A model generated the notes under the pieces. The model was given only the letters and a program-made list of their open reading frames with translations, searched no databases and was not told the DNA's origin. From Deltaproteobacteria bacterium (lineage in GTDB: Bacteria; Myxococcota_A; UBA9042; DTJE01): a DNA stretch of 64,000 bases. This document shows positions 11,968-56,506 of the stretch, one piece after another (position 1 is the first letter of the stretch; each line of letters starts with the position of its first letter). Made by a program: the position numbers and the translations under genes. The stretch lies in contig JAKPOP010000010.1 of assembly GCA_029547805.1 (NCBI GenBank), positions 680,452 to 744,451 on the forward strand, read 5' to 3'.

Positions 11968-12007
11968 CGATAATGGGGGTCGCCTGTTGATCGGGAGAGG
12001 GAACGAC

Positions 12008-14161: not shown

Positions 14162-14164
14162 CCG

Positions 14165-15943
14165 ATGCCGATGGGAAGCGCCGAACGGCCCCGGGCCGGC
14201 AGGGCCGGTACGATCCGGAGGCACGCCCCCGTGCGACGACGAATCGCCACCGCGATCGCCTGCTGGGTCTGGGCCACCGGCTGTGGGATCCCGGAGGGAA
14301 TCGGGCCGGATCCCAGAGTCCCGGGGACTCCGGACACGGCGGACCCGGCGGACCCCGGCTCGGAGACGCGAGACGACGGCGCCGGGGATGCGGCGATGAC
14401 CACCGACCGAGAGACAGACCCGGGCCAGTCCCAGGGAGAGGGGGTCGGTCGGGAGGTCCCGGAGGTGGACCCCCTGCACGACGGCGATCCCCCGGCCGAC
14501 GGCAGTCCCCCGGACCTGGGCCCCCGGACCGACCTCCCGGACCAGGACCCGATGCCAGACCCGGGGACTGGCCCGGCGCCCTGGCGGTCCTCGGTGTCTC
14601 GGGAGGAGATCCGTGCGTTGTTGCAGCACTGCGACAGGACCGCCCTGGAGGACCTCCTGGAGACTCGCTACGACGGGCCGGTCTGCGATGACCGGGGCTG
14701 CACGCTGATCACCGACCCGGGGCCCGGAGCCGTCTCGATCCGCGGGTCCTTCAACGGCTGGAGCGAGACGGCCATGACCCCCGTTCCCTGCGCCCCGGGG
14801 ACCTTCCTGGCGGAGGTGGGCCCGGTGCCCCCAGGGTCCGACGCCTGGGAATACCGGATCTTTCATGATGGCCAGTGGAGAGACGACCCCCGGAACCGCT
14901 ACATCCGGTTCAGCGACCTGGCCATCAACGGGGCCATGTACCGTCCCGGGGTACCCCGCCTGGCCCGGGTCCAGGGACTCCGGTCCGAGGCCCTCCCGCT
15001 CCCCAGAGACGTCTATGTCTTCGTGCCGGCAGAGGCCTATGAGGACCCCCTCCGGCGATTTCCGGTCCTGCTGCTCCAGGATGGCTGGAACGTCTTCGAC
15101 AACCCCCGGGCCCCCTTCGGGTCCTGGAGGGTGGACCGGTCGGCCCGGGCCCTGATCGAGGCCGGTGCCATCGAACCGGTCCTGCTGGTCGGCATCGCCA
15201 CCGCGGACCGGATCAACGAGTACCTCTACACGGACCTCTGGGTCAGCGGGTCGGGGCAGTCGTTCCAGGTCAAGCCCCGACTTCCCGACTATGCCGACCT
15301 GTTGATCCAGGTGGTCCTGCCGGCGATCCGGTCAGGGTTCCCGGCACGGACCGGACCGCGGAACACCGCCATCGGCGGGTCGTCCCTCGGGGGCATCTCG
15401 GCCTTCTGGATCGCCTGGCATCACCCGGAGGTCTTCGGCATGGTCGCCGCCCTCTCGCCCTCGTTCTGGGTCGGGGAGCCGGGCAGCGGGACCGAGGAAA
15501 AGCCCTCGATGCGGGAACTGATCGCGGCCCAGCCGCCGACTCCGGCCCAGCGTGCGTTGCAGATCTACCTGGACAGCGGGGACGGGGGCTATTCACCCGG
15601 CGGAGGTGATGACCCGCCCTATGCCTGGGATGGCCGGGCCTACACCGACTGGACCCGCAACCTGTTGATCCAGCTGGGTTGGCCCAATCGGCCCGAATGG
15701 GACACCGACGGAGACCCGGCGACGGCCCCCGAGGACCTTCCGCTGGAGACGGACCCTGACCGGGTCCCTGCGTTGCGATGGTCCGCCACGACCCCCGCCG
15801 GCTATCGCGACCTGGACGCCTACCTCCGGCCCGATCTGTCGCTGCTGAGCCTCCTGGGGGTCGGACATCCGCACAACGAGGCCGCCTGGGAGCAGCGCTT
15901 CCCCACAGCGCTGCGCTTCCTCTTTCCCGGCGAGTCACCGTAG
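14165..15943 (+). CDS. Putative esterase (esterase-D/enterochelin-esterase-like alpha/beta hydrolase) with an N-terminal Ig-like/early-set domain. Probable lipoprotein.
   Basis: GGSSLGG nucleophile elbow. N-terminal SIRGSFNGWSE...WEYRIFHDGQW resembles CBM48/E-set. An alternative GTG start at 14231 gives signal VRRRIATAIACWVWATGCG with a lipobox. Confidence 0.75.
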   Translation: MPMGSAERPRAGRAGTIRRHAPVRRRIATAIACWVWATGCGIPEGIGPDPRVPGTPDTADPADPGSETRDDGAGDAAMTTDRETDPGQSQGEGVGREVPEVDPLHDGDPPADGSPPDLGPRTDLPDQDPMPDPGTGPAPWRSSVSREEIRALLQHCDRTALEDLLETRYDGPVCDDRGCTLITDPGPGAVSIRGSFNGWSETAMTPVPCAPGTFLAEVGPVPPGSDAWEYRIFHDGQWRDDPRNRYIRFSDLAINGAMYRPGVPRLARVQGLRSEALPLPRDVYVFVPAEAYEDPLRRFPVLLLQDGWNVFDNPRAPFGSWRVDRSARALIEAGAIEPVLLVGIATADRINEYLYTDLWVSGSGQSFQVKPRLPDYADLLIQVVLPAIRSGFPARTGPRNTAIGGSSLGGISAFWIAWHHPEVFGMVAALSPSFWVGEPGSGTEEKPSMRELIAAQPPTPAQRALQIYLDSGDGGYSPGGGDDPPYAWDGRAYTDWTRNLLIQLGWPNRPEWDTDGDPATAPEDLPLETDPDRVPALRWSATTPAGYRDLDAYLRPDLSLLSLLGVGHPHNEAAWEQRFPTALRFLFPGESP

Positions 15944-41204: not shown

Positions 41205-41220
41205 CGTCCGGGCCTCCGGA

Positions 41221-43242
41221 TCAGGCGGGAGCCAGTACCAGGCGATCCCCCCGTGGGTCCACCTCCCGCACCCGCACCTGGACCGGGGAACCGAGGGGCA
41301 GGTGCCCCAGGCCCGGCACCGGGGCGACCAGCATCGTCTCCACCAGTTCCACCAGCGCCCGGGACCCCTGCCGTCCCACCACCTCCGCCTCCACCATCTG
41401 CCCCGCGAAGGCCTCCAGGTAGCGCAACAGCCAGTAACGCCGGCCCTCCCGCTCGACCTGGGTCAGGGCGTCCCCCTGGCCCTCCAGGTCTCCGAATCGC
41501 CGGAGCAGGTCCTCGGTGGTCAGCGGAGCCTTTCCCTCCAGCAGCCATCCCCTCAACTGCCGGTGGGTCAGGAAGTCCTGGAAGCGCCGCAGCGGCGACG
41601 TGACCTGGGCATAGCCCACCACGCCCAGGCCATAGTGGAATTCCGGCCGGCTGGTCCACTCGGCCCGCCGCAACGTCCGCAGGCGCTGCCAGAACCAGGC
41701 CCTCGTCCCCGGGGGAGCCTCCTCGTCGCGGTTGGCCCGTTCCTCCGGGGCCTCCTGGCGCCGGTACACGACTGGAATCCCCTCGTCCCGGGCCAGCCGC
41801 CCCGCCAGCGTGCAGGCCAGCACCATGAACTCCTGCACCAGCCGCCGGGACGCCGAGGCCGAAGACTGGCGCTTCAACACGATCCGTCCCTCCAGGACCC
41901 GCACCGTCACGTCATCCCGGTCCAGCGGCATCGCCCCGGCCTCCAGGCGTCGTCGTCTCATGGCATCGGCCAGCCGGGACAGGACCCGCAAGGGATGCCC
42001 TGGGGACGTCGCCGGGTCCTCGATCACCCGGTTTCCCTCCTCGTAGGTCCACCGTTCGGTCCGCGGGACCCGCACCGATCGGACCTCGAAGCGATCCGCC
42101 GCCCCATCCTGCGAAATGTCCACCTGGAAATCCAGCGCCGGGCGATCCGGGCCGCCATCGAGCGACAGCAGTCCCTCCGACAGGACCTCCGGCAGCATCG
42201 GGATCTTCCCCGTCGGCAGGTAGAGGGACCCGGCACGAAGGGCCGCCTCCCGCGCCACCACGCCATCGAGGGGAAGAAAGGAGGTGGGATCGGCGATCAG
42301 CACGTGGACCCGGAGGCGATCGCCCCCCAGGTCCTCGACCGCCAGGGCATCGTCGACGTCCGTGGTCCAGGGGTCATCGATGGCCAGCACGGGCACGCCG
42401 TCCGGCACCGCCGGGGGCCGCTGCTCCACGCCGGGGAGTCCCCGTTCCACCAGGTGCCGGGCCTCCTCCAGGACCTCCTCGGGGAAGGCGGCTCGGATCC
42501 GCTGGCGGTGCAGCCCCAGCACCTCGTCCTCGTGGAACACCCCCAGGCAGACCAGCAGGTCGAAGGCCCGCCGGGGCGCGTCCCCGGAGGCCCCCCCGGT
42601 CAGGGCGGCCAGCAAGGACACCCCCCGCTGGCCCTCCTTGCCCTCCTCCCCGAAGACCGCCAGGGCCTTCAGCCACTCGATGCCCTGCCGCAGCGCCGCC
42701 CCCTGGTCCTCCCCGCCGTCCAGGGCTGCCTGCACGGCCCTCCGGGCCTCCTCCAGGCGCTGCTGATCCTGGGTCTGGCGGAATCGTCGGACCCGGGCCT
42801 CCTGGACCGCCACGGCGCTGAGGGGACGGACTCGACCCGGCACCGTGGCCCGAAAATGGATGTCGTCCAGGGCCAGGGCCCAGGCGAGGGCGGCCCGATC
42901 CTCCGGACGTCCCTCGGGGAAGGCCAGCCCCGCCAGGTCCTCCACGGCCACGTCGCCCTCGTCCCGGCACAGTTCCCAGAGCACCTGGAGGTCCACCTCG
43001 GGCAACCGGGCCTCGACCCGGCGCCGGAACTCCCCCAGGGCGGCCTGGACGGCCCGGGAGTCCCCGGGCGGGACCCGGTGCCCCGAGACGTGAACGACCC
43101 GGGCGTCCGTCCAGGTCTCCCGGCTGCCCGACTCGGTGACCACGGCCCACCGGTCCCCGGATCGGGAGACTGCGGCGCCCAGCACGACCCGACCCCCGGC
43201 CAGGGCCAGCAACACCGGTCCCGTCTCTCGATCCTGGGGCAT
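41221..43242 (-). CDS. RNB-domain 3'-5' exoribonuclease (RNase II/R family)
   Basis: 673 aa. RNB catalytic region VLAIDDPWTTDVDDALAV... with C-terminal S1-like segment. Confidence 0.85.
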   Translation of the reverse strand: MPQDRETGPVLLALAGGRVVLGAAVSRSGDRWAVVTESGSRETWTDARVVHVSGHRVPPGDSRAVQAALGEFRRRVEARLPEVDLQVLWELCRDEGDVAVEDLAGLAFPEGRPEDRAALAWALALDDIHFRATVPGRVRPLSAVAVQEARVRRFRQTQDQQRLEEARRAVQAALDGGEDQGAALRQGIEWLKALAVFGEEGKEGQRGVSLLAALTGGASGDAPRRAFDLLVCLGVFHEDEVLGLHRQRIRAAFPEEVLEEARHLVERGLPGVEQRPPAVPDGVPVLAIDDPWTTDVDDALAVEDLGGDRLRVHVLIADPTSFLPLDGVVAREAALRAGSLYLPTGKIPMLPEVLSEGLLSLDGGPDRPALDFQVDISQDGAADRFEVRSVRVPRTERWTYEEGNRVIEDPATSPGHPLRVLSRLADAMRRRRLEAGAMPLDRDDVTVRVLEGRIVLKRQSSASASRRLVQEFMVLACTLAGRLARDEGIPVVYRRQEAPEERANRDEEAPPGTRAWFWQRLRTLRRAEWTSRPEFHYGLGVVGYAQVTSPLRRFQDFLTHRQLRGWLLEGKAPLTTEDLLRRFGDLEGQGDALTQVEREGRRYWLLRYLEAFAGQMVEAEVVGRQGSRALVELVETMLVAPVPGLGHLPLGSPVQVRVREVDPRGDRLVLAPA

Positions 43243-43252
43243 GGGCGAATCC

Positions 43253-44611
43253 TCAGAGGGCCTCGACCAGGGACCGGAAGACCTCGCCTCGCTCCTCGAA
43301 GGAGGAAAAGCGATCGAAGGAGGAGGCTGCCGGGGAGAACAGCACGACCCCGTCGGGTCGGGCCTTCTCGTAGGCCTGGACCACCGCCTCCTCCAGGGTC
43401 GGCACCACGTCGGTGGGCACCGTCCGGGGGAACTCCTGCCGCATGCGCTCGGCGCTGTCTCCGGTGAGCACGACGGCCCGGCAACGCCACTCGACCTCCA
43501 GGGCCAGTTCCGTCAGCGGCAGCCCCTTCTCGAATCCCCCGGCGATCAGCACGACCTTGCGATCGAAGGCCCGGAGGGCCGTGATCGCCGCGTGGGGGTT
43601 CGTGGCCTTGCTGTCGTTGAAGAACGAGACGCCATCCACCCGCCGCACGAACTCGAGCCGGTGCGGCAGCCCCCGGTAGGTGGCGATGCCCTGCCGCAGC
43701 CCCTCGGGGTCCCCCACCAGCGAGGATGCGGCGGCGACGGCCAGCAGGAGGTCCTCCGTGTTGTGCTCCCCCGGGAGGGGGAACTCCCCCCGATCGGCGA
43801 TGCGCACCTCGCTCCCGTGCTGGGCCATGTGGATCGCATGGTCCAGCAGGAAGGCCCCGTCCTTCACCGGTCCCGTCCGGGAGACGTCCCGGACCCGCTG
43901 GCCGTTGTCCCGGGCCCACCGGTTGCCCGGCCGGACCCACTCGGCAAGCAACCGGTCGTCCAGATTGCGCACGAAGACGTCCCCGTGGGCCTGCTCCTGG
44001 AGGATCCGGGACTTCGCGGCGACGTAGGCCTCGAAGGACCCGTGGTGGTCCAGGTGGTCCTCCGCCAGATTGGTCACCACCGCCACCTCTGGCCGGAAGC
44101 GGTCCGTGGACAACAACTGGTAGCAGGAGACCTCGGCCACGACCACGTCCTGGTCCGACAGGCTCGGAAACAGGTCACAGAGGGGGTTGCCCAGGTTCCC
44201 GGCGGCATGGGCCCGGACCCCGCAGGCATTGAGCAGGTGGGCGATCAGCGTCGTGGTGGTGCTCTTCCCGTCGGTGCCCGTCACCGCCAGGATCCGCCCC
44301 GGAAACAGGCGGTAGAAGAGTTCCACGTCCCCCATCACCTGGGACCCCAGGCGGTGGGCCATGCGGTAGGCCGGCGCCGCCGGGGGAATCCCCGGCGAGA
44401 GGATCACCACGTCGCCGGGCCGCACCTCCTCCCGGCCCAGGACCAGGCGCACCCGGTAGTCCAGCCGGTCCTCGGCCCGCTGGCGCAGTTCCTCCGTGTC
44501 CCGGCCGTCGGACAGCAGCACGTCCCCCCCAAGAGAGGCCAGCAGGTTGGCCGTCGCCAGGCCGCTCTTGCCCATGCCCAGCACGCTGAACGCGGTCCCC
44601 TCGATCCTCAT
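43253..44611 (-). CDS. murD: UDP-N-acetylmuramoyl-L-alanine--D-glutamate ligase
   Basis: Start at MRIEGTAFSVLGMGKSG (M263 of the track ORF). The upstream part of that ORF is shadow. Mur ligase P-loop GTDGKSTTT. 453 aa. Confidence 0.9.
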   Translation of the reverse strand: MRIEGTAFSVLGMGKSGLATANLLASLGGDVLLSDGRDTEELRQRAEDRLDYRVRLVLGREEVRPGDVVILSPGIPPAAPAYRMAHRLGSQVMGDVELFYRLFPGRILAVTGTDGKSTTTTLIAHLLNACGVRAHAAGNLGNPLCDLFPSLSDQDVVVAEVSCYQLLSTDRFRPEVAVVTNLAEDHLDHHGSFEAYVAAKSRILQEQAHGDVFVRNLDDRLLAEWVRPGNRWARDNGQRVRDVSRTGPVKDGAFLLDHAIHMAQHGSEVRIADRGEFPLPGEHNTEDLLLAVAAASSLVGDPEGLRQGIATYRGLPHRLEFVRRVDGVSFFNDSKATNPHAAITALRAFDRKVVLIAGGFEKGLPLTELALEVEWRCRAVVLTGDSAERMRQEFPRTVPTDVVPTLEEAVVQAYEKARPDGVVLFSPAASSFDRFSSFEERGEVFRSLVEAL

Positions 44612-46008
44612 GGCACTCCTTTCAGGCGGATTGCCGGGGGACCCAGATCCGCCGCCAGGGCATCGGCCCGGGCAAAGAGGTCGTCCCCGCCGAAGAAGAT
44701 CACCGTGTCGTCGGGGCGGATCACCTGCCTCAACTGCGGGAGCAACTGCTCCTCGTCCGGCACGAACAGGACCGTCCGCCCCGTCTCCCCGATCTTGGCC
44801 ACAAGCCAGGGGGCGTCCACCCCCGGGATCGGCACCTCCCCGGCAGTATAGAGTTCGGTCACCAGGACCAGGTCCGCCTCCCGGAAGGCCTCCCGGTACT
44901 CGTCGCCCAGGTAGTGGATCATCGTGAACCGGTAGGGCTTGAAGACCGCCACCAGGCGCCCCGGGGCAAAGACCCGGGCCCCCTGGAGCACGCTGCGGAT
45001 GCCCGAGGGATGGCTGATGTAGTCCTTCACCAGCAGGCAGGGACCTGCCGGGACCAGCGTGAAGCGGTTCTCCAGTCCCCGGAAGGCCGGCAGGGCCTCC
45101 CGGAGCACCTCGGGGGGAACTCCCTCCTCCCGGGCCACCGACAGCGCCGCCAGGGCATTGTGGGCATTGTGGGCCCCCGGCAGCGCCACCCGGAACTCCC
45201 CCAGGTCCCCTTCCGGGGCAATCAGACGGAACCGCGATCCCAGCCCCTCCAGGCGCAGGTCCACCATCCGGTAGTCGCAGGCGGGCCCCTGGCCGAAGGT
45301 CAGGCCGTGGCGGCCGCTGCGCCGAAGCACCTCCCGGCAGTTGGCGTCGTCCCCGGCGACGTGGAGCAGGGGCGGCGAGTCCGGCCGGGCAAGCCACCGG
45401 GAGAAGTGGTCCAGGAGTCCCTGGAGGTCCTTGTAGTGGTTCAGGTGATCCGCCTCGAGATTGTTCACCACGAGGCGCCGAGGACGGGTGTTTGCGCAGG
45501 ACCCGTCCGATTCATCGAGTTCGCAGACCAGGTGGGGGGCCCCGGTCTCCCGGGCATTGGTGCCGTAGTCCAGCAGCATCGCCCCGATGGCGAAGGCCGG
45601 CCGCAGTCCGCCGCGGTCCAGCAGGAAGGTGGTCAGCGCCGACACGGACCCCTTGCCGTTGGTCCCGGTGACCCCGATGGCCTGTCGGCCTTGCATCAGC
45701 GCCCCCAGGACCACGGACCGGTGGACCACCGGCAGCCCCATCCGCCGGGCCGCCTGCAGTTCGGGATTGGACTCGGGGATCGCCGTCGAGACCACCACCA
45801 GGTCGGCCCCGTGCAGGTTCTGCTCCCGGTGCCCGATGTGGACGACGGCCCCCTGCTGCCGCAGGGACCGGGTGATCGACGACTCCCGGACGTCGGACCC
45901 CGACACCGGCACGCCCCGGCCCAGCAGCAGCCGCGCGACCGCACTGACGCCGACGCCCCCGATGCCCAGCAGGTGGACCTTGCGGTCCGGCGACAGGTCC
46001 AGGTGCAT
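44608..46008 (-). CDS. murC: UDP-N-acetylmuramate--L-alanine ligase
   Basis: 466 aa. KVHLLGIGGVGVSAVA N-term, GTNGKGS P-loop, NALAA motif. Its stop overlaps the murD ATG (ATGA). Confidence 0.9.
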   Translation of the reverse strand: MHLDLSPDRKVHLLGIGGVGVSAVARLLLGRGVPVSGSDVRESSITRSLRQQGAVVHIGHREQNLHGADLVVVSTAIPESNPELQAARRMGLPVVHRSVVLGALMQGRQAIGVTGTNGKGSVSALTTFLLDRGGLRPAFAIGAMLLDYGTNARETGAPHLVCELDESDGSCANTRPRRLVVNNLEADHLNHYKDLQGLLDHFSRWLARPDSPPLLHVAGDDANCREVLRRSGRHGLTFGQGPACDYRMVDLRLEGLGSRFRLIAPEGDLGEFRVALPGAHNAHNALAALSVAREEGVPPEVLREALPAFRGLENRFTLVPAGPCLLVKDYISHPSGIRSVLQGARVFAPGRLVAVFKPYRFTMIHYLGDEYREAFREADLVLVTELYTAGEVPIPGVDAPWLVAKIGETGRTVLFVPDEEQLLPQLRQVIRPDDTVIFFGGDDLFARADALAADLGPPAIRLKGVP

Positions 46009-46246
46009 CGTTCGATTCCCGATCCGGCCCCCGGGGGAGAATCGCGCGCTTTGCGGGCCGGATCAAGTTTCCCGAGGAGCACGTGCGAGGCCCCGCGACC
46101 GCCCGGTGGTTGGGGGCCTGGACGCACGTTCGAGCCCCGGGGTGGTTCCAGGACGGCCCCGGCAGGTCCCGCCGAGGCCCACTTGCCGGGAAACCACTTT
46201 CCATACAGGCAGTTGATGGCGACAACGAGGTGACTGTCCCCGGGAT

Positions 46247-47065
46247 TCAGTCCCCTTCCCGCTCGGGGCCCCGGCCCAGGTACCAGAGGGCCCGCATCCG
46301 GACCAGGGCCCGGCCGCTCTGCCCGGCCACCAGTTCCAGGGCCCGCTCGGCCTCTTCCGGTGGGAGGTCCCCCAGGGCGCCCACGGCCGCCAGGGCCACG
46401 TCCGGGCCCCCCTCCACCGCCACCCGCCCCAGGGCCGCCGCCCCGTCCCGGCCCCCGATCCGGCTCAGGGCCCCGACGGCCCGGAAGGCGACCTCGTCGT
46501 CCGGCCCCTTCGCCAGGCGCACCAACGCCTGGATCGACTCCCGGTCGGCCCGATCGAGAAGCGCCAGAAGCACCGGCCGCGAGGGCGGCGGGTCCCGATC
46601 CAGCCACTGGGCCACCATGGAACCCGACAAGCCGTAGACCTCGACCTGGGCCAGGGCCTCCTCCAGGGCCTCGGCGACCACCCGGGCCAGGGCCAGGGCC
46701 CGATCCCACTCCGTCATCTCCGGGGACGGGGCCGGCCCCTGGGCGGCACCTTCCACCCGCATGTCGGGTTCGTTGGGGATCGTGATCGTCCACCGGGCGG
46801 TGGCCTGCATCGAAGGCCCGTCCTCCCCCTCGCAGGATGCATCGAGGGCCAGCGTGGCGGCCCCCTGCCGCCCCGGCAGCACCGGGGTCGCCAGCAGGGC
46901 CATCCCCAGGGCCAGCACCACCGGGCAGTCCTCGGCCGGCGCCTCCTCCAGCGGCAGGACCCGCAGGTCGATTCCCGCCGCCCCCGCCCCGGTTCCGGGG
47001 GGTCCCGAGGCGCAGGCCATCCCCACGAGCCCGACGATCCACGCTGTCCGTCGATGGCATCTCAT
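46247..47065 (-). CDS. HEAT/PBS-lyase-repeat lipoprotein
   Basis: Signal + lipobox MRCHRRTAWIVGLVGMACASG. C-terminal repeats AFRAVGALSRIGG... AAVGALGDL. Confidence 0.6.
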   Translation of the reverse strand: MRCHRRTAWIVGLVGMACASGPPGTGAGAAGIDLRVLPLEEAPAEDCPVVLALGMALLATPVLPGRQGAATLALDASCEGEDGPSMQATARWTITIPNEPDMRVEGAAQGPAPSPEMTEWDRALALARVVAEALEEALAQVEVYGLSGSMVAQWLDRDPPPSRPVLLALLDRADRESIQALVRLAKGPDDEVAFRAVGALSRIGGRDGAAALGRVAVEGGPDVALAAVGALGDLPPEEAERALELVAGQSGRALVRMRALWYLGRGPEREGD

Positions 47066-47157
47066 GGCCTCCTTCTACCTCCCAGGGGCCGACTCTTCAA
47101 GGCCACCGGCGGTTTCCGGTCGGCCTGCCGGGGCGTACACTGCCTGAAGGTCGCTGC

Positions 47158-48132
47158 ATGGAGGTCTGGATGGACGCCGATGCCATTCCCGTGGGAATCA
47201 GCGCCTGTCTGCTGGGCGAGGCGGTGCGCTACGACGGCGGTCACCGACGGGACTCCTACATCGTCGGGACGCTGGGCCGCTTCTTCCGATTCGTGCCCTG
47301 CTGTCCGGAGGTCTCGGCGGGCCTCGGCGTCCCTCGCCCGACGATCCGGCTGGTCCGGGTCGGCGATGACCTCCGGGCGATGGGCACCCGGGACCCCCAT
47401 CCCGACGTCACCGACGCCCTGCAGGCCCTGGCCGACCGGGTGATCCGGGACCACCCGGACCTCTGCGGCTTCCTGCTGAAGGCCCGGTCCCCCAGTTGCG
47501 GCATGGAGCGGGTCCCGGTGTACCGATCGGTGGAGGACCAGGGACGACCCGAGAAGCGAGGCGTGGGGGCCTTCGCCCGCCGGCTGATGGCGCTGGCCCC
47601 CGAGATCCCTCTGGAGGAGGAGGGAAGGCTCGGAGACCCGGTGATCCGGGACCACTTCGTGACCCGGGTCTTCACGCTGTGGCGCTTTCGCCGGATGCGG
47701 GATCAAGGCCTGTCGCCGGCGGCCCTGCTGGACTTCCATGCCCGCCACAAACTGCTGTTGCTGGCTCACCACCGTCCCGGATACGTCGCCCTGGGACGCC
47801 TGCTGGCCGCCCGGGCCGGGGACCGGGACCTGGAGGCGGTGGCCCGGGACTACCTGGCCGGGCTCACCGAGACCCTCCGTCACCCCGCCACCCGGGGCAG
47901 GAACACCGACGTGCTCCAGCACCTTGCAGGCTTCCTGAAGCGGGACCTCGACGCCGCGGACCGTGCGGAGATCGCCGAGGTCATCGATGCCTATCGCCGG
48001 GGCCAGGTCCCCCTGATTGTCCCGATCACGCTGCTCCGGCACCACTTCCGCCGCCACCCCCACCCCTACGTCGCCGGTCAGGTGTATCTGGAGCCCCATC
48101 CCCCGGAACTGGCGCTCCGCAACGGCGTCTGA
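47158..48132 (+). CDS. DUF523 + DUF1722 two-domain protein (YbgA-like)
   Basis: Start at MEVWMDADAIPVGISACLLGEAVRYDGGH (ATG 47158). N-terminal DUF523 Cys motif. C-terminal DUF1722 helical region. Confidence 0.75.
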   Translation: MEVWMDADAIPVGISACLLGEAVRYDGGHRRDSYIVGTLGRFFRFVPCCPEVSAGLGVPRPTIRLVRVGDDLRAMGTRDPHPDVTDALQALADRVIRDHPDLCGFLLKARSPSCGMERVPVYRSVEDQGRPEKRGVGAFARRLMALAPEIPLEEEGRLGDPVIRDHFVTRVFTLWRFRRMRDQGLSPAALLDFHARHKLLLLAHHRPGYVALGRLLAARAGDRDLEAVARDYLAGLTETLRHPATRGRNTDVLQHLAGFLKRDLDAADRAEIAEVIDAYRRGQVPLIVPITLLRHHFRRHPHPYVAGQVYLEPHPPELALRNGV

Positions 48133-48308
48133 CCCCGGTATCGGAACGGAATGGCAACGGTCGCGCGGCGACGACCGGTTTGACGCCCCCCCCGCCGGCG
48201 GTCCATACTGCCCCCATGAGGACGTCATGTGGTCTGGCAGGGACACGGCCCCGGGTGTCCCCTGCGCCCCTCGGCCGCCAACAGGCCTGTCGGCCGAGCG
48301 TTGCTGGC

Positions 48309-50363
48309 ATGGCCCCGTGGGGCCTCGTTGCAATGCTGGCGACGGGCCTGATGGCCTCCCCCGCCGGCGCCGACACCCCGCCGGACCCCTCGCCCCGCAC
48401 GGTCCGCGTCGGCGTCTATCAGAACAAGCCCAAGGTGTTCCAGGATCCGAAGGGGCGGCCCGCCGGGCTCTTCATCGAACTGCTGGAGGAGATCGCCCGC
48501 CGGGAGGGCTGGGCCCTGCAGTTCGTGCCCTGCCGCTGGTCCGAGTGCCTGGAGGCCGTCACCCAGGGCCGGATCGACCTGATGCCCGACGTCGCCTACA
48601 GCCGCGAGCGGGACCGCCTGTTCCACTTCCACCAGACGCCGGTCATCGAGAGCTGGTCCCAGGTGTTCGCCCGGTCCACCGCCGACATCCGGACCCTGTC
48701 GGACCTGGACGGCCTGCGGATCGCCGCGCTTCGGGACTCGATCCAGGAGGCCTCCTTCCGGCAGATGATCGCCGGCTTCGGGATCCGGGCGACCCTCGTG
48801 CCCACCGAGACGCTGGAAGAGGCCTTCGAGGCGGTCCGGGAGGGTGTCGCCGACGCCGCCATCGCGAACCACATGTTCGGGGAGTACTTCCATCGCCAGT
48901 ACGGCCTGGTCCGCACGGCCATCGTGTTCGAGGTCGCGGAACTGTACTTCGTCACGGCCAGGGACCAGAACGGCGACCTGCTGGAGGCCATCGATCGCCA
49001 CCTGTCGGCCTGGGTCCGGGAGCCGAACTCGCGGTACTACGCCACCCTGTCCCGGTGGATGGACCGTCCCCCCGTCCGGCTGGTCCCCCGGCGGGTTCTG
49101 TGGGTCCTGGGCGTCGTGATGGGTCTGCTGGTCCTGGCGATCGGCGTCATCCTGGTGCTGCGCATGCAGGTCCGGTCCCGCACCCGGCGGCTGGTCCAGG
49201 TCCACGAGGAACTGCGGCAGGCCCAGAAGATGGAGGCCATCGGCAAACTGGCCGGCGGCGTCGCCCATGACTTCAACAACCAGCTGACGGTCATCCTCAG
49301 TTACGCCGAACTGGCCCTGGGCCAGATGCAAGAGTCCGATCCCGGTCACTCGGAGATTCGCGGGATCATGGAGGCGGCGGAACGGGCCGCGGCGCTGACG
49401 CACCAGTTGCTGGCCTTCAGCCGCAAGCAGGTGATGGAGATCCGTCCCCTGGACCTGAACCGGGTCATCCGCGACCTGGAGCCGATGGTCCGCCGGATCC
49501 TGGGGGAGGACATCGTGATCACCCTGGACCTGGCATCAGGCCTGGGGCAGGTCCTGGCCGATCCCAGCCAGATGGAACAGGTGCTGATGAACCTGGTCGT
49601 GAACGCCCGGGACGCGATGCCCTCGGGAGGGAGGCTGACCATCCGCACCAGCGCCGTTCGCATGGAGGACGTCGTTCCCCGGGGCCAGGCCGACATGAGA
49701 CCGGGGCCCGGCATCCTGTTGACCGTGTCGGACACCGGCATCGGGATGGACGAGGCGACCCGCCTCCGCGTCTTCGAGCCGTTCTTCACCACCAAGGAGC
49801 CCGGCAAGGGGACCGGCCTGGGCCTCTCGACGGTCTATGGCATCGTCCGGCAGAGCGGCGGCCACATCTGGGTCCAGAGCAGGCCCGGGGAGGGCACCAC
49901 GTTCCACATCTGCCTCCCGGAGGCCCCCGAGGCGCCAGCGGCCAGCGACGGCCCGCCCCGACCGGAGGCTGCTCCGTCCACCGGCCCCCACGGCACCGAG
50001 ACGGTCCTGCTGGTCGAGGACGAGGCGTCGATCCGGGCCCTGGAGCAACAGGCGCTGCGTGCCGCCGGCTTCACGGTCCTGGCAGCGGCCGACAGCGACG
50101 AGGCCCTCCGGCTGGCCCGGCAGCACCCGGGCGAGATCCACCTGCTCCTGACGGACCTGGTCCTGCCGGGCGACAGCGGTGCCGCCCTGGCCCGCGAGGT
50201 GGTCACGGCGCGACCCCGGATCCGCGTGCTGTACATGTCCGGCTACACCGACGACATGGCGGTCCGCCAGGGGATGCTGGACCCCGGCGCCCGGTTCATC
50301 GCCAAGCCCTTCACCACCGAGTCCCTGGTCCGGAAGGTCCGGGAGACGCTGGACCGCCCCTGA
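48309..50363 (+). CDS. Hybrid sensor histidine kinase with periplasmic solute-binding (SBP_bac_3-like) sensor, TM, HisKA, HATPase_c and C-terminal receiver
   Basis: Start at signal peptide [21 protein letters not shown] (alternative ATG at about 48216). H-box [12 protein letters not shown]-boxes DTGIGMD / GTGLGLS. REC with LVEDE...D...K. Confidence 0.8.
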
Positions 50364-50433
50364 CCCGATGCCTGGATCGGGAAATCAAGGACTCTCGCAG
50401 ATGCCCAGGCGATCCAGGGGAGTCAGTGTCCGG

Positions 50434-50862
50434 TCAGGCACTGACCATGGGGGGATGCTGTTTTGAGAAGGTGGAGACACCATCAAGCGATCGCTGCGCC
50501 GGAGGACGCAGCAACCCTGCGGCGCAGGAGCCTGGCATCGGTGGTGAGACAGATCCAACCGGCAGAGACGTCGATTCTGCGGCCGTGATCCTGGTTGAGC
50601 CTTCGGGGCTTGTCCCTACCTGGCCGGACCATGCTCGACGACTGGGGCGGCACCGTCGCGGTCCTGGATGTCGGCGGGCTGAATGACGACGACCAGGCGC
50701 AGGCCCAGCAGGTCCACCAGCCGGTGGCTCTTGCGGCCCTGGACCTTCTTGCCATCGTCGAATCCCTTGGGGCCGCCCTGCGGCGAGGTCTTCACGGACG
50801 AACGCGCTCCAGGCCTGTCGGGAAGGCCGTCCAGGAGGTCGCATGATGGCATCCGCCCTCAC
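50434..50862 (-). mobile_element. IS5-family (DDE) transposase remnant (internal fragment, frameshifted/truncated pseudogene)
   Basis: Minus-strand ORF 50616..50852 encodes ...GFDDGKKVQGRKSHRLVDLLGLRLVVVIQPADIQDRDGA..., the conserved IS5/IS4 DDE core (GKKxKGRKRHxxVDxxGL...DxQDRDGA). Flanking frames are broken. Local GC is lower than the surroundings. Confidence 0.6.
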
Positions 50863-51023
50863 GCGGACCTCCGCAACGGACAGGACGAAGACGCCTTCAT
50901 TGACTCGCGGGCGTCGTCAGGTACAGTGTCCAGCAAACCGGGTGCGATACGAACTCAACCAGCCGCGTAAAGAACTCATGTCTCGCAAGTCTCGCAGCGG
51001 GAGAGCCAGAAGGGGGAAGCGCG

Positions 51024-52433
51024 ATGACAAGCAGCCTCTACCGGTACCAGCAGGAAGGCGTCGCGTTCCTCGCTGACAGGAGATACGCCCTCTTGGCCGA
51101 TGAAATGGGCCTGGGCAAAACGGTCCAGGCCATCAAAGCGGCAGACGCCATCGGCGCCAGGCATATCCTGGTCGTCTGCCCGCTCTCCCTTGCTGCCAAC
51201 TGGCAGAAGGAAATCGAGAGGTGGTCCGACAACCCCCAGTCCGCCCTCTGCCGTCAACCGACGGACTTCACGTTCATGCGCCCGCGCTGGTCCATCGTGA
51301 ACTACGAAATGCTCAAGAAGGTCCCGCCGAATATCACTTACGACCTGATGATTCTCGACGAGGCCCACTACATCAAGAATCCCAAGTCACAACGCACGGT
51401 CGCGGTTTTTGGGAAGGACCGGAAGGGAGACCCGCCGTCCCTGTTCCAGCGATGCGCCCGCGTCTGGTTCCTGACAGGAACGCCTGTCCTCAACCGCCCC
51501 ATCGACCTCTGGCCGTTCGTTCATTTTGTCATGCGGCACCGCTCCTGGTGGTTCTACGTCCGGGACTTCTGCAATGCCAAGAAAACCCCGTTCGGCCTCG
51601 ACGTTTCCGGTGCCTCCAACACCGACCAACTTCATACCATGCTCAAACCCTACCTGCTTCGGCGCCGAAAGGCCGAGGTTCTCAAGGAACTCCCCCCGAA
51701 GGTCGTCCAGGTCTTGCCCCTGGAACCAGAACAGGCAATGTCCCGCCTGGCGTCCAGGCTTGCGTCCATCGTCGCCACGTCCGCGTCCGGAGCATTGCAG
51801 CGATACATCGACAGCGGCCTGGCTGGACCATTGCCACCGGGAACCGGGGAACTCGCCACCATCCGCCGGGAACTCGGCCTGGCCAAGGTCAAGCAGGTCA
51901 CGGAAATCGTCAACAACATTCTGGAATCAGAGCAGAAATGCGTCGTCTTCGCCATTCACAAGGACGTTGTGTCCCTTCTCCGGGATGCACTGAAACAACA
52001 TGGGGTAGTCACCATCACAGGGGATACCCCGGTGGAGGAACGCAACGTGGCGGTGGACAGGTTCCAGAACTCCAAGAACGTCCGCGTCATCATTGGTACC
52101 ATCGGCGCGATGGGTGTCGGCCTGACCCTGACCGCATCCTCCACCGTCGTCTTCGCAGAAATCGACTGGTCACCAGCCCTCATGCAGCAGGCAGAAGACC
52201 GCTGCCACCGCATCGGGCAGCAGAACGTCGTCTGCGTCCAACTACCCGTCGCCCCAGGCTCCATCGAGGAACGCATTGCCAGCCTCGTTGCCTGGAAATC
52301 ACGCGTGGCTGCTTGCATCGTCGATGGAGTGGAGCATGCCCAAACGCAGGGCGGTCCGAAGTGGACCCGATTTTTCAGACGGATATGGACCCGGCTTTTT
52401 GGGCAACGTGCCAAGAGAAACCCTCGTCCATGA
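51024..52433 (+). CDS. Compact SNF2-family helicase (phage-type: SNF2_N + Helicase_C only)
   Basis: 469 aa. YRYQQEGVAFL...LADEMGLGKTVQ (motif I). DEAH box MILDEAHYIKN. Helicase C motifs ...GVGLTLTASSTVVFAEIDWSPALMQQAEDRCHRIGQ. SD AGAAGGGGGAAG upstream. Codon usage and GC visibly lower than neighbouring genes. Confidence 0.85.
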   Translation: MTSSLYRYQQEGVAFLADRRYALLADEMGLGKTVQAIKAADAIGARHILVVCPLSLAANWQKEIERWSDNPQSALCRQPTDFTFMRPRWSIVNYEMLKKVPPNITYDLMILDEAHYIKNPKSQRTVAVFGKDRKGDPPSLFQRCARVWFLTGTPVLNRPIDLWPFVHFVMRHRSWWFYVRDFCNAKKTPFGLDVSGASNTDQLHTMLKPYLLRRRKAEVLKELPPKVVQVLPLEPEQAMSRLASRLASIVATSASGALQRYIDSGLAGPLPPGTGELATIRRELGLAKVKQVTEIVNNILESEQKCVVFAIHKDVVSLLRDALKQHGVVTITGDTPVEERNVAVDRFQNSKNVRVIIGTIGAMGVGLTLTASSTVVFAEIDWSPALMQQAEDRCHRIGQQNVVCVQLPVAPGSIEERIASLVAWKSRVAACIVDGVEHAQTQGGPKWTRFFRRIWTRLFGQRAKRNPRP

Positions 52434-52760
52434 AGGCCCGGTAAGACCAAGGAGGGGAGTACGGAATCGACGCGAAGAAAGCACACTGCAGGGTTCAAGG
52501 CGGAGGTGGCTTTGGGGGCGTTGCAGTAGGACGCGACCGTGGTGCGGCCTGAAGTACGAGGAGATGTCCTTGAAGGCCCACTCCACAGGTCAGTCGGGCA
52601 TCCATGACGCTTCGATACCTCCATGACATCGCTGGCTCCTGTCGCCAGTCCATACCCCAACGGGTCACCCATCTGCCCGGTCTGGCCTGTCACGGATTGA
52701 CCCGGTCTGGACGCATTTCTGGCTCCAAGGCGAATGAGTGAAAATCCGTCCTGGCACCCC

Positions 52761-53732
52761 TCACGGGGGAGACAGGGGCTGGAGGAGGCGCTGGAGGGCC
52801 AGGGGGACGGAGGGGCTGTAGGCCCAGTCCCGGTCCCAGGCCAGCAGGGCCTCGGCCATCTCCAGCACGCCGTCGATCCCGATCCGATCGACCAGGGCCT
52901 GCATCGGCCTGATCAGGTCCGGGTGGGCGCACTCGGACTCGGGCAGCCCCAGGGCCACCCGCAACAGGTCCCGGACCAGGGACTCGATCCAGACCATCCG
53001 GGCCAGATTCTGCTCCCGGCCCCGACCGAGGCCCTCGAACCACTGGAAGCGGGCGGTGACATGAGGCACGTCCAGCAGGGCCCTCAAGAGGTCCTCCCCC
53101 TCGGCCAGGTCCTCGGCCTGGGCCAGGCGCATCGCGCTCCCCGGACTGCCCCGGGCCACCAGTGCGGCGACCTGCGCCGTCTCGCCGGGAATGCCCCGGG
53201 CCACCAGCAGGGAGCGGACCTCGTCGGTGGAGAGGCGGCCGAAGGCGACGGGGAAGCACCGGGAGACCACGGTCCGGGGCAGGAGGTCCGGGGCCGAGGT
53301 GACCAGGATGAAGATCACGCCGGGCGGGGGCTCCTCCAGGGTCTTGAGGGCCGCGTTGGCCGCCTCGATCTTCAGTCGGTGGGCGTCGTCCAGCACCAGT
53401 CCCTTCACCGGACCGACCACCGGGGGAAAGTACAGGCGCGGCATCGCGTTGCGGACCTGCTCGATCTTCAGGAAGACCCCGTCGGGCACGAGCACCTCGA
53501 TGTCCGGGAAGAGACCCTGGTCCACCTGCCGGCAGGAGAGGCACTCCCCGCAGGAGTCCTCCTCCGTCCGGTTCCGGCAGACCAGGAAGGACAGGAAGGC
53601 CATCGCAACGGTCCGCTTGCCAACCCCCTCGGGTCCATGGAACAGCCAGGCATGGCCCAGGTGGTCCCGAATGGCCATCTGCCGCAGCACCTCGATGACG
53701 GAGCGATGGCCGACGACGTCCCGGAAGCGCAT
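52761..53732 (-). CDS. holB: DNA polymerase III delta-prime subunit
   Basis: Start at MRFRDVVGHRSVIEVL (M12 of the track ORF). AAA+ P-loop-like GPEGVGKRT. Zn-module CGECLSC. SRC motif VVSRC. Confidence 0.8.
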   Translation of the reverse strand: MRFRDVVGHRSVIEVLRQMAIRDHLGHAWLFHGPEGVGKRTVAMAFLSFLVCRNRTEEDSCGECLSCRQVDQGLFPDIEVLVPDGVFLKIEQVRNAMPRLYFPPVVGPVKGLVLDDAHRLKIEAANAALKTLEEPPPGVIFILVTSAPDLLPRTVVSRCFPVAFGRLSTDEVRSLLVARGIPGETAQVAALVARGSPGSAMRLAQAEDLAEGEDLLRALLDVPHVTARFQWFEGLGRGREQNLARMVWIESLVRDLLRVALGLPESECAHPDLIRPMQALVDRIGIDGVLEMAEALLAWDRDWAYSPSVPLALQRLLQPLSPP

Positions 53733-53956
53733 GGCTCCCTCCCCAGACCGCCCTGAGATTACCACGAAGCGTCAGGGCCGCACGGGCCTCGCACCGGCCG
53801 CGCAGTCGGCCTCCCTGACGCCCTGGGCGCCCGCCAGCACGAAGACCCGCGCGGGATCGGCGTTGATCAGAGCCACCGGGCCCAGGTGCAGCGTGCGCCC
53901 CTGGACCATGAGGGGGTGGTTCACGAGCAGAGCCTCCGTCCGGATCGGCGCCGAGG

Positions 53957-56506
53957 TCACCGGGAGGACCGGGCCCGGGACGGAGGCCGGGACTCGTCGG
54001 GGACCGGCACGGATCGCCGGCGGCCCAGGACCAGCAGGAGGCCCAGGCCCAGGAGCCCCCACACACCCGAGGCCGTCCCTTCCGAGGCCGCGGTTCCGCA
54101 CCCGCTGGAAGTGCGTCGGCCACCAGGACCCACGTCCTCGCCGGCAGGGTCCCCCTGGGGCCCCGGCGTCTCGGCCACGGCATCCTGTCCAGGACCAGGC
54201 TCCCGCAGGTCCCGGGCCTCGCCGTCGGGTCCAGCCTCGCCTGCGTCCGATCCACCCGACAGGTCGGAGGGTCCCTGGTCGGGCAGGTCTACGGTCCCGA
54301 CGTCCGACGGGGTGTCGGGGGCCTCGGGACCGGGGGCCTCGGGGGTGGGTTCGGGGTCACAGGCCGGGTCATGGACGCCGACACAGAGGCCCCGGCCGTC
54401 GCAGGAATCCTCCCGGGTGCAGGGATCCCCGTCGTCGCACTCGGTGCCCTCCTCGGCGAAGGGGCTGGTGCAGGTCCCGGTCCCGGGGTCGCAGGTCCCG
54501 GCGACGTGGCAGGGCGAGGCCGGAAGACACATCACCAGATCCTCGCCCACACAGATCCCGTCCCGGCAGGCATCGGATCGGGTACAGGGGTTCCCGTCGT
54601 CGCACCCCGTCCCGTCGGTGGCCGGAGGATTCGTGCAGGTCCCGGTCGCCGGGTCGCACCGCCCGGCCACGTGGCACGCGTCCTGGGCCATGCACGTCAC
54701 CGGGTTCCCGCCGGTGCAGACCCCCGCCACACACCGGTCCGTCCGGGTGCAGGCATTCCCGTCGTCGCACCCCGTCCCGTCGGCCGCCGGGGTCTTCCGG
54801 CAGGTCCCATCCACGCAACTCTCCACCGTGCAGGGGTTCCCGTCGTCCGGGCACGCGCCACAATCGACGCACCCGTCGAACCCGCAGGATCCTGCATCAC
54901 AGGCCGCCCCGATCGTGCAGACCCGGAACGAGATCGTGGTTCCGGTAGCCCCGATGTCGAAGACGCGAATGCCTCCCGGGGCCCCTGACGACAGGAACGG
55001 ATAGGGGTTCCGGCCGGCGCTGAAGTCGGTCCGGCCGTAGTCCTGGGCCATCACCGCATTCTCGATGGTCCCCTCGGCAGAGGGCGTCCCGCCGGGCCGG
55101 AAGACATACACCTCGTCGGGCGGTCCCTCGGAGTTCCCCGACAGGGAGGGGTTGACGCGATAGGCCAGCAGGCCGGTCCCCGGCAGGGACGTCTCGTACG
55201 ACCCGGTCCGCCTTCGGTACTCCAGGAAGAAGTACTCGGTGGACGACCCGGGCGCCGCCACCAGCAGGTGGTTGTCCACGGGGCTGGTGACGTCGTTGAG
55301 GGTGAACCGCCCGCGCACCACTTGCCTGAGCGCCGGGATCCACCCGCCGTAGCGATACTTCATGTAGGCGCCCATGTGCTGGGGCGTCGGAAAGGTCCCC
55401 TCCATCAGGTCCCAGGGCCCCACCGGCGTCCGGCCATCCAGGCTGTAGTGATAGAGGTCCGGCGCGCCCAGCGTGTGGAACATCTCGTGGCACAGCACCC
55501 CCAGCTCGATCCAGGAGGACAGTTGGAGGTTGAAGTCCCACACCCGCTTGCCCCGAATGTCGGCCTCGTACAGGTAGAGGGACCACCGATGGGGCCACAG
55601 CAGTTCGGCCCAGGAACCGTAGGCCCCCTGGACCACCAGCACGACGCTGTCCACGTAGCCGTCGGCATCGGCGTCGATGTTCAGTTCCGCTGGGACCTGG
55701 CCGGCAATGGCGGTCACCGCCCGGGCCACCAGGGCCTGTTCCCGTTCGATCCGCTGGGAACCGTCAGCCCCCCCCTGGTAGCCACCCGGATTGAACCAGG
55801 GGTCGTAGGGCTCGTAGTAGGACCTCGGATAGGGGTCCTGGTAGGAGACGACGTACCCCCCGGAGGGCACCGGGAAGAAGGAGGACTGGATGGCCAGTTG
55901 CTGGTAGGAGACCTCCCGGAAGTAGGACCACATCGAGAGGCCAGGGCCGTTCATGAGCCCGTCATAGACCCCGATGGGCTGGCCGAACTCGGCCTGGTCG
56001 CTGAACCGGACGAAGACCACCAGATTGTTCAGGACCCCTCGACGGGGGGCGGGATTCAGCGGTGCGGGGGACAGGGATGGCGTCGTCGGGGTTCCGGAAT
56101 CCGGGGCCCGGGAGGGCGACGGGACCCGGGGTGGCCGGGGCACCGCGCCCAGCCAGGGGACCAGCGTCTGTGGCGCATCGGCGGCCTGCGGCGACAGTCC
56201 CATCCGCTCCGGGTCGGCCTGGCCGACGGCCAGCACTGTGGGGACCAGCCGCCCGCCCACCTCCGCCCCGTACACCCACCAGCCCGTCGGGTCCCGGACC
56301 ACGGTGAATCCCCGGGCGTCGTGGACCCGCTGGCGGTACTCGTCGCCGCTGACCAGGAGCCACCACTCGGTGCCGTCAGGCTGCACGACCCGGACCGGCC
56401 TGTCCCGCAGCGGCGCCCCTGCCGCCGGACCACCGGCGAGGACTCCCAGCAGCATCGCGACTGCCAGCCGTCGAAACCTGCCACCGATCCCCAACCACCG
56501 GGCCAT
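53957..56506 (-). CDS. M6-family (immune-inhibitor-A-like) zinc metalloprotease with C-terminal Cys-rich repeats and MYXO-CTERM-type tail
   Basis: Signal MARWLGIGGRFRRLAVAMLLGVLAGGPAAGA. HExxH CHEMFHTLG. Repeats CDDGNACTRTDRC... (same module as the gene at 12008). Tail ...SSGCGTAASEGTASGVWGLLGLGLLLVLGRRR, followed by 18 extra residues before the stop. Confidence 0.85.
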   Translation of the reverse strand: MARWLGIGGRFRRLAVAMLLGVLAGGPAAGAPLRDRPVRVVQPDGTEWWLLVSGDEYRQRVHDARGFTVVRDPTGWWVYGAEVGGRLVPTVLAVGQADPERMGLSPQAADAPQTLVPWLGAVPRPPRVPSPSRAPDSGTPTTPSLSPAPLNPAPRRGVLNNLVVFVRFSDQAEFGQPIGVYDGLMNGPGLSMWSYFREVSYQQLAIQSSFFPVPSGGYVVSYQDPYPRSYYEPYDPWFNPGGYQGGADGSQRIEREQALVARAVTAIAGQVPAELNIDADADGYVDSVVLVVQGAYGSWAELLWPHRWSLYLYEADIRGKRVWDFNLQLSSWIELGVLCHEMFHTLGAPDLYHYSLDGRTPVGPWDLMEGTFPTPQHMGAYMKYRYGGWIPALRQVVRGRFTLNDVTSPVDNHLLVAAPGSSTEYFFLEYRRRTGSYETSLPGTGLLAYRVNPSLSGNSEGPPDEVYVFRPGGTPSAEGTIENAVMAQDYGRTDFSAGRNPYPFLSSGAPGGIRVFDIGATGTTISFRVCTIGAACDAGSCGFDGCVDCGACPDDGNPCTVESCVDGTCRKTPAADGTGCDDGNACTRTDRCVAGVCTGGNPVTCMAQDACHVAGRCDPATGTCTNPPATDGTGCDDGNPCTRSDACRDGICVGEDLVMCLPASPCHVAGTCDPGTGTCTSPFAEEGTECDDGDPCTREDSCDGRGLCVGVHDPACDPEPTPEAPGPEAPDTPSDVGTVDLPDQGPSDLSGGSDAGEAGPDGEARDLREPGPGQDAVAETPGPQGDPAGEDVGPGGRRTSSGCGTAASEGTASGVWGLLGLGLLLVLGRRRSVPVPDESRPPSRARSSR

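Follow-up and report, generated by a model that had tools for sequence, protein, structure and literature searches.

SNF2-family helicases of phages are grouped in PHROG 62, and the cluster in which such a gene stands with DUF2800, a DUF2815-type protein that binds single-stranded DNA (SSB) and a polymerase is known from cultured phages (PMC7996906). Achromobacter phage AchV4 carries an SNF2/RAD54 helicase beside DUF2800, a DUF2815/Enc34-type SSB and a polymerase, and further examples are the helicases of Thermus phage phiLo and of the Ralstonia phages DU_RP_II and RpY1. The same SNF2 ATPase core is found in the anti-phage defence proteins DrmD, ZorD, DpdE and HmaA, which are 850-1300 aa long and have extra domains (Mrr-like or PD-(D/E)XK nuclease, among others) and partner genes; HmaA, which as a single protein provides defence, requires its C-terminal PD-(D/E)XK nickase domain for this (PMC11232893). 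Here we describe a lone gene for a compact SNF2 ATPase in the chromosome of a Deltaproteobacteria bacterium (Myxococcota_A; assembly GCA_029547805.1), lying in an islet of lower GC between a hybrid sensor kinase gene and holB. The DNA analysed, a 64-kb stretch of contig JAKPOP010000010.1 (positions 680,452 to 744,451, forward strand), is called the window throughout. We consider it likely that the islet is the remnant of a horizontally acquired mobile element, scarred by insertion sequences (IS), which has kept a single phage-type SNF2 gene.

The islet and the two genes that flank it are as follows.

50378..52745, no strand: lineage-specific islet, 2368 bp, GC 0.615; homology to the sister-lineage contigs L045 and L056 stops at 50377 and restarts at 52746
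48309..50363, plus strand: hybrid sensor histidine kinase, left flank; 684 aa in public assemblies, with SBP_bac_3, HisKA, HATPase_c and Response_reg domains (Pfam)
52761..53732, minus strand: holB (DNA polymerase III delta' subunit), right flank; PF13177 5.5e-43 and TIGR00678 1e-51 (175 bits)

Mean GC across the window is 0.711, with a standard deviation of 0.027 for 1-kb windows, and the only 1-kb windows with GC below 0.66 are those starting at 50501-52001 (0.599-0.635; minimum 0.599). The strongest tetranucleotide outlier among the 2-kb windows also starts at 50501 (z 4.7), and GC at third codon positions (GC3) is 0.757 in the helicase gene against 0.936 in the kinase gene and 0.932 in holB. 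These three measures bear out an original prediction, made from the sequence, that a lower-GC islet lies between a sensor kinase gene ending at 50363 and a holB gene ending at 52761, and Pfam and NCBIfam agree on the identity of both flanks. The extent first given, 50364-52760, was right as to location; alignment with the sister lineage narrows the junctions, placing the start of the islet 14 nt past the kinase stop and its end 15 nt short of the stop of holB, which is convergent with the helicase gene. Classical integrative genomic islands and prophages are recognized by an integrase, a tRNA or att target and flanking direct repeats beyond chance. As the prediction had it, gene calls and a tRNA search found no integrase among the genes around the islet, no partner or defence genes within 10 kb and no tRNA in the window; Rfam families were likewise lacking in the islet and in the whole window. 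No direct or inverted repeats above chance level flank the islet, a negative outcome for the check for short direct repeats that the prediction had proposed.

A search with holB brought up a sister lineage in L045 (a short Logan contig, run DRR438506); a second contig of that lineage, L056, comes from another sample (run DRR438503). Their flanks are 93-99% identical to the window at the nucleotide level and share the junctions 50377/52746; in L045 the identity is 93% over holB up to 52746 and 96% over the 3' end of the kinase gene up to 50377, and its holB is 95% identical in amino acids. Between the junctions, in place of the helicase gene and the IS5 fragment described below, both contigs hold 833 bp unrelated to the islet, in which the gene for a 159-aa lipobox protein (LLLSSGC) has a native-like GC3 of 0.875. 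Comparison of the sister-lineage segments with the window by tblastx gave only GC-rich low-complexity noise, and the two alleles have no homology. Because the sister lineage holds unrelated DNA at identical junctions, the islet is lineage-specific, and the event is a replacement and no clean insertion. The expectation that a close lineage would lack the helicase and the transposase fragment was thus borne out, while the empty site that had been envisaged, with the kinase gene directly beside holB, is occupied in these relatives by the 833 bp with the lipoprotein gene. Deviant composition together with a presence/absence polymorphism at fixed junctions is the operational definition of a horizontally acquired islet, and both are found here.

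More distant relatives differ again at this site. Downstream of holB, L042 (holB 76% identical) has genes for a thioredoxin-reductase-like protein, Cpn10, glutaredoxin, thioredoxin and an ArsR-type regulator, followed by a conserved block of HEAT, Mur ligase, Mur ligase and RNase II genes; the DUF1722 gene, the kinase gene and the helicase gene are missing from it. L044 (holB 78%) has another unrelated gene downstream of holB and also lacks the helicase. A holB search of contigs representing one genome per species gave, among the matches listed, only distant ones of at most 42% (Magnetococcales, Bacteroidota). This neighbourhood is generally unstable, and the comparison marks the intergenic space downstream of holB as a hot spot of rearrangement in the Myxococcota clade concerned.

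The variable region is wider than the islet. It extends over about 46250-53800, from the HEAT-repeat gene to holB, and corresponds to L042 6592-11972: the window has there a DUF1722/2-thiouracil-desulfurase-like gene, the hybrid kinase gene and the islet, and L042 has genes for the ArsR-type regulator, thioredoxin, glutaredoxin, Cpn10, a hypothetical protein and the thioredoxin-reductase-like protein. Since the stretch from HEAT to holB differs between relatives, the islet sits within a larger variable region. The small lipoprotein gene of the sister lineage has itself shifted loci within the clade, as its sole other homologue (70%) lies at 3658-4158 of L055, a contig of the same metagenome as L042, between genes for a B12-binding radical-SAM protein and an alpha-2-macroglobulin.

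The helicase gene and a candidate promoter occupy the middle of the islet.

51024..52433, plus strand: intact gene for a 469-aa SNF2-family ATPase/translocase, compact and of the type found in phage replication modules (Pfam, phrog_62, motifs, AlphaFold)
50900..50927, plus strand: TTGACT-16-TACAGT, a sigma-70-like promoter match (to the consensus only) that lies 97 nt upstream of the helicase gene's ATG

The 469-aa protein had been read as SNF2_N plus Helicase_C, and Pfam agrees, with SNF2-rel_dom (8e-34, 117 bits) and Helicase_C (8e-16, 59 bits) both over their cutoffs. Motifs Q, I, Ia, II, III, V and VI of superfamily 2 (SF2) were checked, and the sequences DEMGLGKT, DEAH, LTGTP, GVGLTLT and QAEDRCHRIGQ, which place the protein in the SNF2 family, are all present. 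Of 68 columns invariant across ten homologues it keeps 63, the five changes being conservative; 85% of near-invariant columns are kept, fewer than in nine of those ten homologues and more than in one. It is full length relative to homologues of 424-463 aa, which begin at the Q motif. The AlphaFold model (predicted local distance difference test score, pLDDT, 86; predicted template-modelling score, pTM, 0.80) has the canonical two-lobe SNF2 core, and Foldseek matched it to remodeller motors in the PDB with template-modelling (TM) scores of 0.6-0.7 and, with stronger expectation values (E), to phage helicases in a viral structure library. These sequence and model features indicate that the gene probably still makes an ATP-driven double-stranded DNA (dsDNA) translocase or fork-remodelling enzyme.

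Upstream of the gene, the promoter-like match is one found against 0.3 expected, and a GGGGGA Shine-Dalgarno-like run stands 6-11 nt before the ATG. At the other end, a tail of about residues 437-469 (52332-52433) is basic, has low pLDDT, reads KWTRFFRRIWTRLFGQRAKRNPRP and is without counterpart in the homologues; it may be read-through into DNA joined by insertion of the IS3 element treated below. A terminator-like hairpin with a T-run lies inside the coding sequence of this tail, at 52353-52367. The idea that the IS5 element had cut off the N-terminus of the helicase was rejected: the 424-463-aa homologues start at the same position, and an in-frame start further upstream is lacking.

The affinity of this protein is to phage helicases. 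Its strongest family match is PHROG 62, phage DNA helicase (phrog_62, E 2.3e-104, 351 bits, residues 2-437), and a tblastn search found homologues in 1448 phage genomes, the best being those of Thermus phages phiLo and MN1 and of Ralstonia phages at 36-38% identity. At least 579 viral contigs carry a homologue, with best identities of 41-43%, equal to the best found anywhere; among 5.8 billion proteins the best non-identical match reaches 44%. Each of the five homologues whose neighbourhood was examined stands in a replication region of a phage or mobile element. Two of them, P0011 (450 aa) and P0083 (439 aa), are in modules in which the SNF2 gene is followed by a small open reading frame (ORF), DUF2800/PD-(D/E)XK, an Enc34-type SSB and a family A polymerase (PolA), with Prim-Pol, integrase and holin genes close by. 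P0004 has an integrase, ArdC and an M23 peptidase as neighbours, P0052 has MT-A70, DUF1376, Toprim and a DNA methylase, and P0022 has DnaA_C, RusA and SSB. The islet protein thus belongs to PHROG 62 by sequence, and its gene neighbours are a kinase gene and holB in place of a phage replication module. The minimal helicase type had been predicted to be one common to phage modules and defence islands; the phage side of that description stands and the defence side, weighed below, does not.

The left part of the islet carries a fragment of an IS5-family transposase gene and a tentative second piece of it.

50634..50849, minus strand: fragment of an IS5-family DDE transposase, covering roughly residues 111-175 out of some 270 (tblastn, Pfam, NCBIfam, blastn)
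50483..50605, minus strand: tentative C-terminal piece of the IS5 transposase, residues ~242-272 plus stop, in a shifted frame (weak collinear tblastn)

The first peptide sits in a 78-aa ORF at 50616-50852(-), which matches Pfam DDE_Tnp_1 with 25.1 bits (cutoff 23; E 1.7e-5) and the NCBIfam IS5 profile with E 5e-7, the latter match being confined to positions 101-166 of the 258 in the profile. Over 55 aa the peptide shares 60% identity with residues 121-175 of an IS5 transposase from a Mesorhizobium plasmid, and over 72 aa it shares 50% with one from a Methylobacterium plasmid. With IS5 transposase as the tblastn query it is the only match in the whole window (E 1.7e-14), and blastn of the region matches annotated IS5 transposase genes. 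The IS5/IS4-type identity proposed for this segment therefore holds and is no chance similarity, while the coordinates given for it, 50434-50862, belong to a 142-aa ORF that overlaps the true one. The N-terminal 110 residues of the transposase are gone. The tentative C-terminal piece, covered by an ORF at 50483-50755, matches at 50605-50510 with E 0.058 when the islet alone is searched and not at E<=1 against the whole window; it suggests that about 170 bp have been lost internally. A functional IS5 has a complete DDE transposase of about 260-275 aa and terminal inverted repeats; here the NF033580 score is 29 bits, the cutoff being 110, and the terminal inverted repeats of reference IS5 copies were not found at the islet. 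Another IS5-like match at 52645-52764(-) was rejected, being not collinear and extending into sequence common to the sister lineage.

Between the helicase gene and holB lies about 0.3 kb that had been described as non-coding DNA with nothing but broken ORFs. It carries instead fragments of an IS3-family element.

52473..52541, plus strand: fragment from the N-terminus of an IS3-family OrfA, RRKHTAGFKAEVALGALQ*DATV, containing a stop in frame (tblastn, blastn)
52533..52584, plus strand: IS3-family OrfB C-terminal fragment, RPWCGLKYEEMSLKAHS, compare ERLWRSLKYE..YLK (blastn, tblastn)
52591..52653, minus strand: tentative further IS3 OrfB fragment, MDWRQEPAMSWRYRSVMDARL, in opposite orientation (weak tblastn)

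In a six-frame search of all 64 kb, the OrfA proteins of Geobacter and Variovorax both had their best match at 52473-52541(+), with E 0.010 and 0.089, respectively, and by blastn 52479-52523 aligns to the 5' end of a Variovorax IS3 orfA. Positions 52533-52581 match the 3' region of the Variovorax IS3 orfB at 82% over 49 nt, with E 7e-3 against 7.3 Gb of plasmids and 1e-8 against five reference loci, and OrfB proteins have their best or second-best match of the whole window at 52534-52584(+) (E 0.4-1.1). The fragment at 52653-52591 gave E 0.16 with a Geobacter OrfB, and a Hymenobacter IS3 matched at the same site. These independent query segments all fall within the same 0.5% of the window (0.3 kb). 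Because the orfA and orfB pieces are collinear yet 9 bp apart, about 0.9 kb of the IS3 would have been deleted, and the right-hand 0.3 kb is best read, from its sequence, as what an IS3-family element left behind after an internal deletion. The marks of a functional IS3 (orfA and orfB with their frameshift, the DDE core, the TG...CA ends) are gone; about 23 orfA and 17 orfB codons are left, and Pfam and NCBIfam searches with the right gap's translated frames and with a stitched peptide gave no matches. IS3 matches that tblastn gave for a stitched peptide, in which guessed residues stood in place of four stop codons, are biased and were discounted. Extrapolated from the Variovorax coordinates, the right end of the IS3 would lie near 52750, close to the islet junction, where a terminal repeat of the element was not identified. 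The helicase gene is thus bracketed by what appear to be remnants of two different IS families, IS5 and IS3.

How such an arrangement could arise may be pictured as follows. The gene for a compact SNF2 ATPase of phage replication modules would have entered the intergenic space between the kinase gene and holB, which are convergent, and elements of the IS5 and IS3 families would have come along with it or afterwards, where they may have contributed to the rearrangement. The acquired DNA would have taken the place held in the sister lineage by a native lipoprotein gene, displacing that small gene. Later deletions would have cut both insertion sequences down to fragments and left no other phage gene, with the helicase ORF alone surviving intact, preceded by a credible promoter and ribosome-binding site; it may be an unselected passenger or a co-opted accessory factor of replication or repair. 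Both the composition and the content of the window allele favour it as the acquired one. The original reading of the islet as the decayed stump of a mobile element with a lone compact SNF2 gene is in this way supported by the relatives and by the genuine transposase similarity.

Several points weigh against this reading. Remnants of a phage module (small ORFs, DUF2800, SSB, PolA) are absent from the window, and because the module neighbours left no trace, the term prophage remnant would stand on the helicase alone. Each IS3 fragment is weak when taken singly (E 0.01 to 1). Target-site duplications, terminal inverted repeats and an integrase, which would point to a mechanism of insertion, were looked for and are lacking. 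Polarity is unproven, as the relatives whose holB is 76-78% identical carry yet other genes downstream of it, and the 70% lipoprotein homologue lies elsewhere, in the metagenome that also holds the 76% relative; because of both, the sister allele could itself be derived. Finally, the six copies of the locus compared (the window and L001-L005, which represent 12 contigs) are identical over 13.7 kb and so offer no polymorphism for a selection test based on the ratio of nonsynonymous to synonymous substitution rates (dN/dS).

These copies bear on a second explanation, in which the lone SNF2 ATPase has been domesticated as a selected host factor, either an annealing or fork-remodelling translocase or a RapA-like, transcription-coupled remodeller, and the islet was its route of arrival. 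The identical 469-aa protein is found in a Myxococcota metagenome-assembled genome (GCA_035372385.1) and in 12 contigs belonging to a number of assemblies at ENA, JGI and NCBI. Over 41024-54754, L001-L005 match the window at 100% identity, differing only in a repeat copy number further right. Such identity among independent metagenome assemblies indicates a single clonal population across samples. The recurrence of the arrangement in those 12 contigs from several metagenomes speaks for domestication, as do a helicase ORF that is intact with all its motifs whereas both insertion sequences are fragmentary, the promoter-like and Shine-Dalgarno-like sequences upstream, and longer homologues of which some have HARP-type domains or bear the JGI name SMARCAL1-like. 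We nevertheless regard it as possible but doubtful. There is no orthologue at 45-99% identity among the 5.8 billion proteins and no sign of vertical retention beyond the one clonal population; the sister lineage lacks the gene, its GC3 is still far off native, and its retention of near-invariant columns is below that of nine in ten homologues. As to RapA/HepA, the match to the NCBIfam RapA model (PRK04914) reaches 43.5 bits where the cutoff is 576.

A related and unlikely variant is that a minimal phage-derived SNF2 motor has been kept as a stand-alone, effector-less factor with neither nuclease nor partner. If that were so, such a motor might protect or remodel replication forks or disturb the replication of related phages, a use of a single-gene SNF2 core that is as yet undescribed in bacteria.

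It is also rather improbable that the islet is a native segment of unusual composition which the sister lineage lost through a translocated lipoprotein gene. The occurrence of the 70% lipoprotein homologue at a different locus, in a metagenome with a more distant relative, and the variation of the site downstream of holB in every relative examined would fit such a loss. They are set against a helicase GC3 of 0.757 where the flanks have 0.93, the tetranucleotide z of 4.7, the two IS remnants inside the segment, the phage-borne helicase homologues at no more than 44% identity and the lack of the helicase in the distant relatives L042 and L044 as well.

The prediction had offered a defence island as an alternative origin, and this finds no support, partner genes being absent and the NCBIfam scores far below the family cutoffs. 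PADLOC models of ZorD, DpdE, DrmD, BrxHI and HmaA do match the helicase with E from 1e-17 to 3e-50, and its location varies among relatives as it does at defence hot spots, but the matches span only the shared helicase core, in the C-terminal part of much longer profiles. For DISARM DrmD, NF038317 gives 68 bits against 610 and NF038318 gives 58.5 against 950, and no drmA, drmB, drmC or drmMI lies within 10 kb. Zorya ZorD is an SNF2 protein of about 1000 aa with an Mrr-like nuclease, encoded beside zorABC; here NF041790 gives 94 bits against 1500, the PADLOC matches are limited to profile positions ~440-885, and no zorABC is found. Dpd DpdE scores 70 bits against 500 (NF041062), with no dpd genes, and for Hma HmaA the PADLOC match covers residues 287-403 only, in a protein that stops about 35 residues past the helicase core. 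With scores 5-16-fold below the defence-family cutoffs, a phage helicase family as its strongest match, no nuclease or other effector domain and no partner gene within 10 kb, the helicase is very improbable as a remnant or single-gene form of an SNF2 anti-phage system such as DISARM (DrmD), Zorya (ZorD), Dpd (DpdE), BREX (BrxH) or Hma (HmaA).

Two further features of the window lie outside the islet. A 342-bp tandem repeat at 13321-13967 (1.9 copies, 91% matches) encodes Cys-rich modules (KCQADADCNDNDVCTRDKCVNGPC...), and the region of about 12000-14500, whose GC is normal, ranks second in the window for tetranucleotide deviation (z 4.3). To the right of holB, an 849-aa ORF at 53957-56506(-) contains a 165-bp in-frame repeat at 54414-54808, encoding Cys-rich GNPCT/DG.C modules, and also an HExxH-type motif (LCHEMFHTLGAPDLYH). 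It is the copy number of this 165-bp repeat that varies, the otherwise identical L001-L005 carrying up to five extra copies, and in L042 the gene is missing from between holB and the metallophosphatase gene.

Taken as the remnant of an acquired mobile element, the islet would be a junction-resolved example of mobile DNA uptake followed by erosion in a high-GC chromosome, an ordinary scar of horizontal transfer with little importance beyond annotation. It also offers a caution, in that helicase-core matches to ZorD, DrmD and DpdE models are insufficient for calling lone SNF2 genes defence genes. The SNF2 ATPases of phage replication modules are a very large family that has received little biochemical study; the islet's helicase is a divergent member of it, at no more than 44% identity, and if expressed and selected it would serve as a natural "minimal" representative for study.

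Compared with the described systems, the islet is like an IS-bounded islet or the cargo of a composite transposon in holding a foreign gene of deviant composition between IS remnants, with a sister lineage that lacks it. It differs in that its remnants belong to two families, are internally deleted and have no recognisable terminal repeats or target duplications; because IS5 and IS3 differ and both are deleted and without terminal repeats, it cannot be a functional composite transposon. The defence proteins share its SNF2 ATPase core, and it has neither their extra domains nor their partners. Residues 23-433 align with the Sulfolobus SsoRad54-like core (PDB 1Z63; E 6e-35), and this alignment of the whole protein to an isolated SNF2 core implies dsDNA translocation as its basic activity. 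Identity to 1Z63 and to the eukaryotic motors INO80, ISWI, CHD1 and Mot1 is 22-26%, and the helicase lacks accessory domains and nucleosome-related functions. From the PHROG 62 phage helicases it differs in that its gene is solitary, on a bacterial chromosome, and lacks DUF2800, SSB, polymerase, primase and integrase genes in its vicinity; in its at most 44% identity to any known sequence; and in its unique basic C-terminal tail. It shares with them a full-length match (with the phages named above, it is 36-38% identical across 90% of its length), the compact architecture of the 424-463-aa forms and the two-lobe SNF2 fold.

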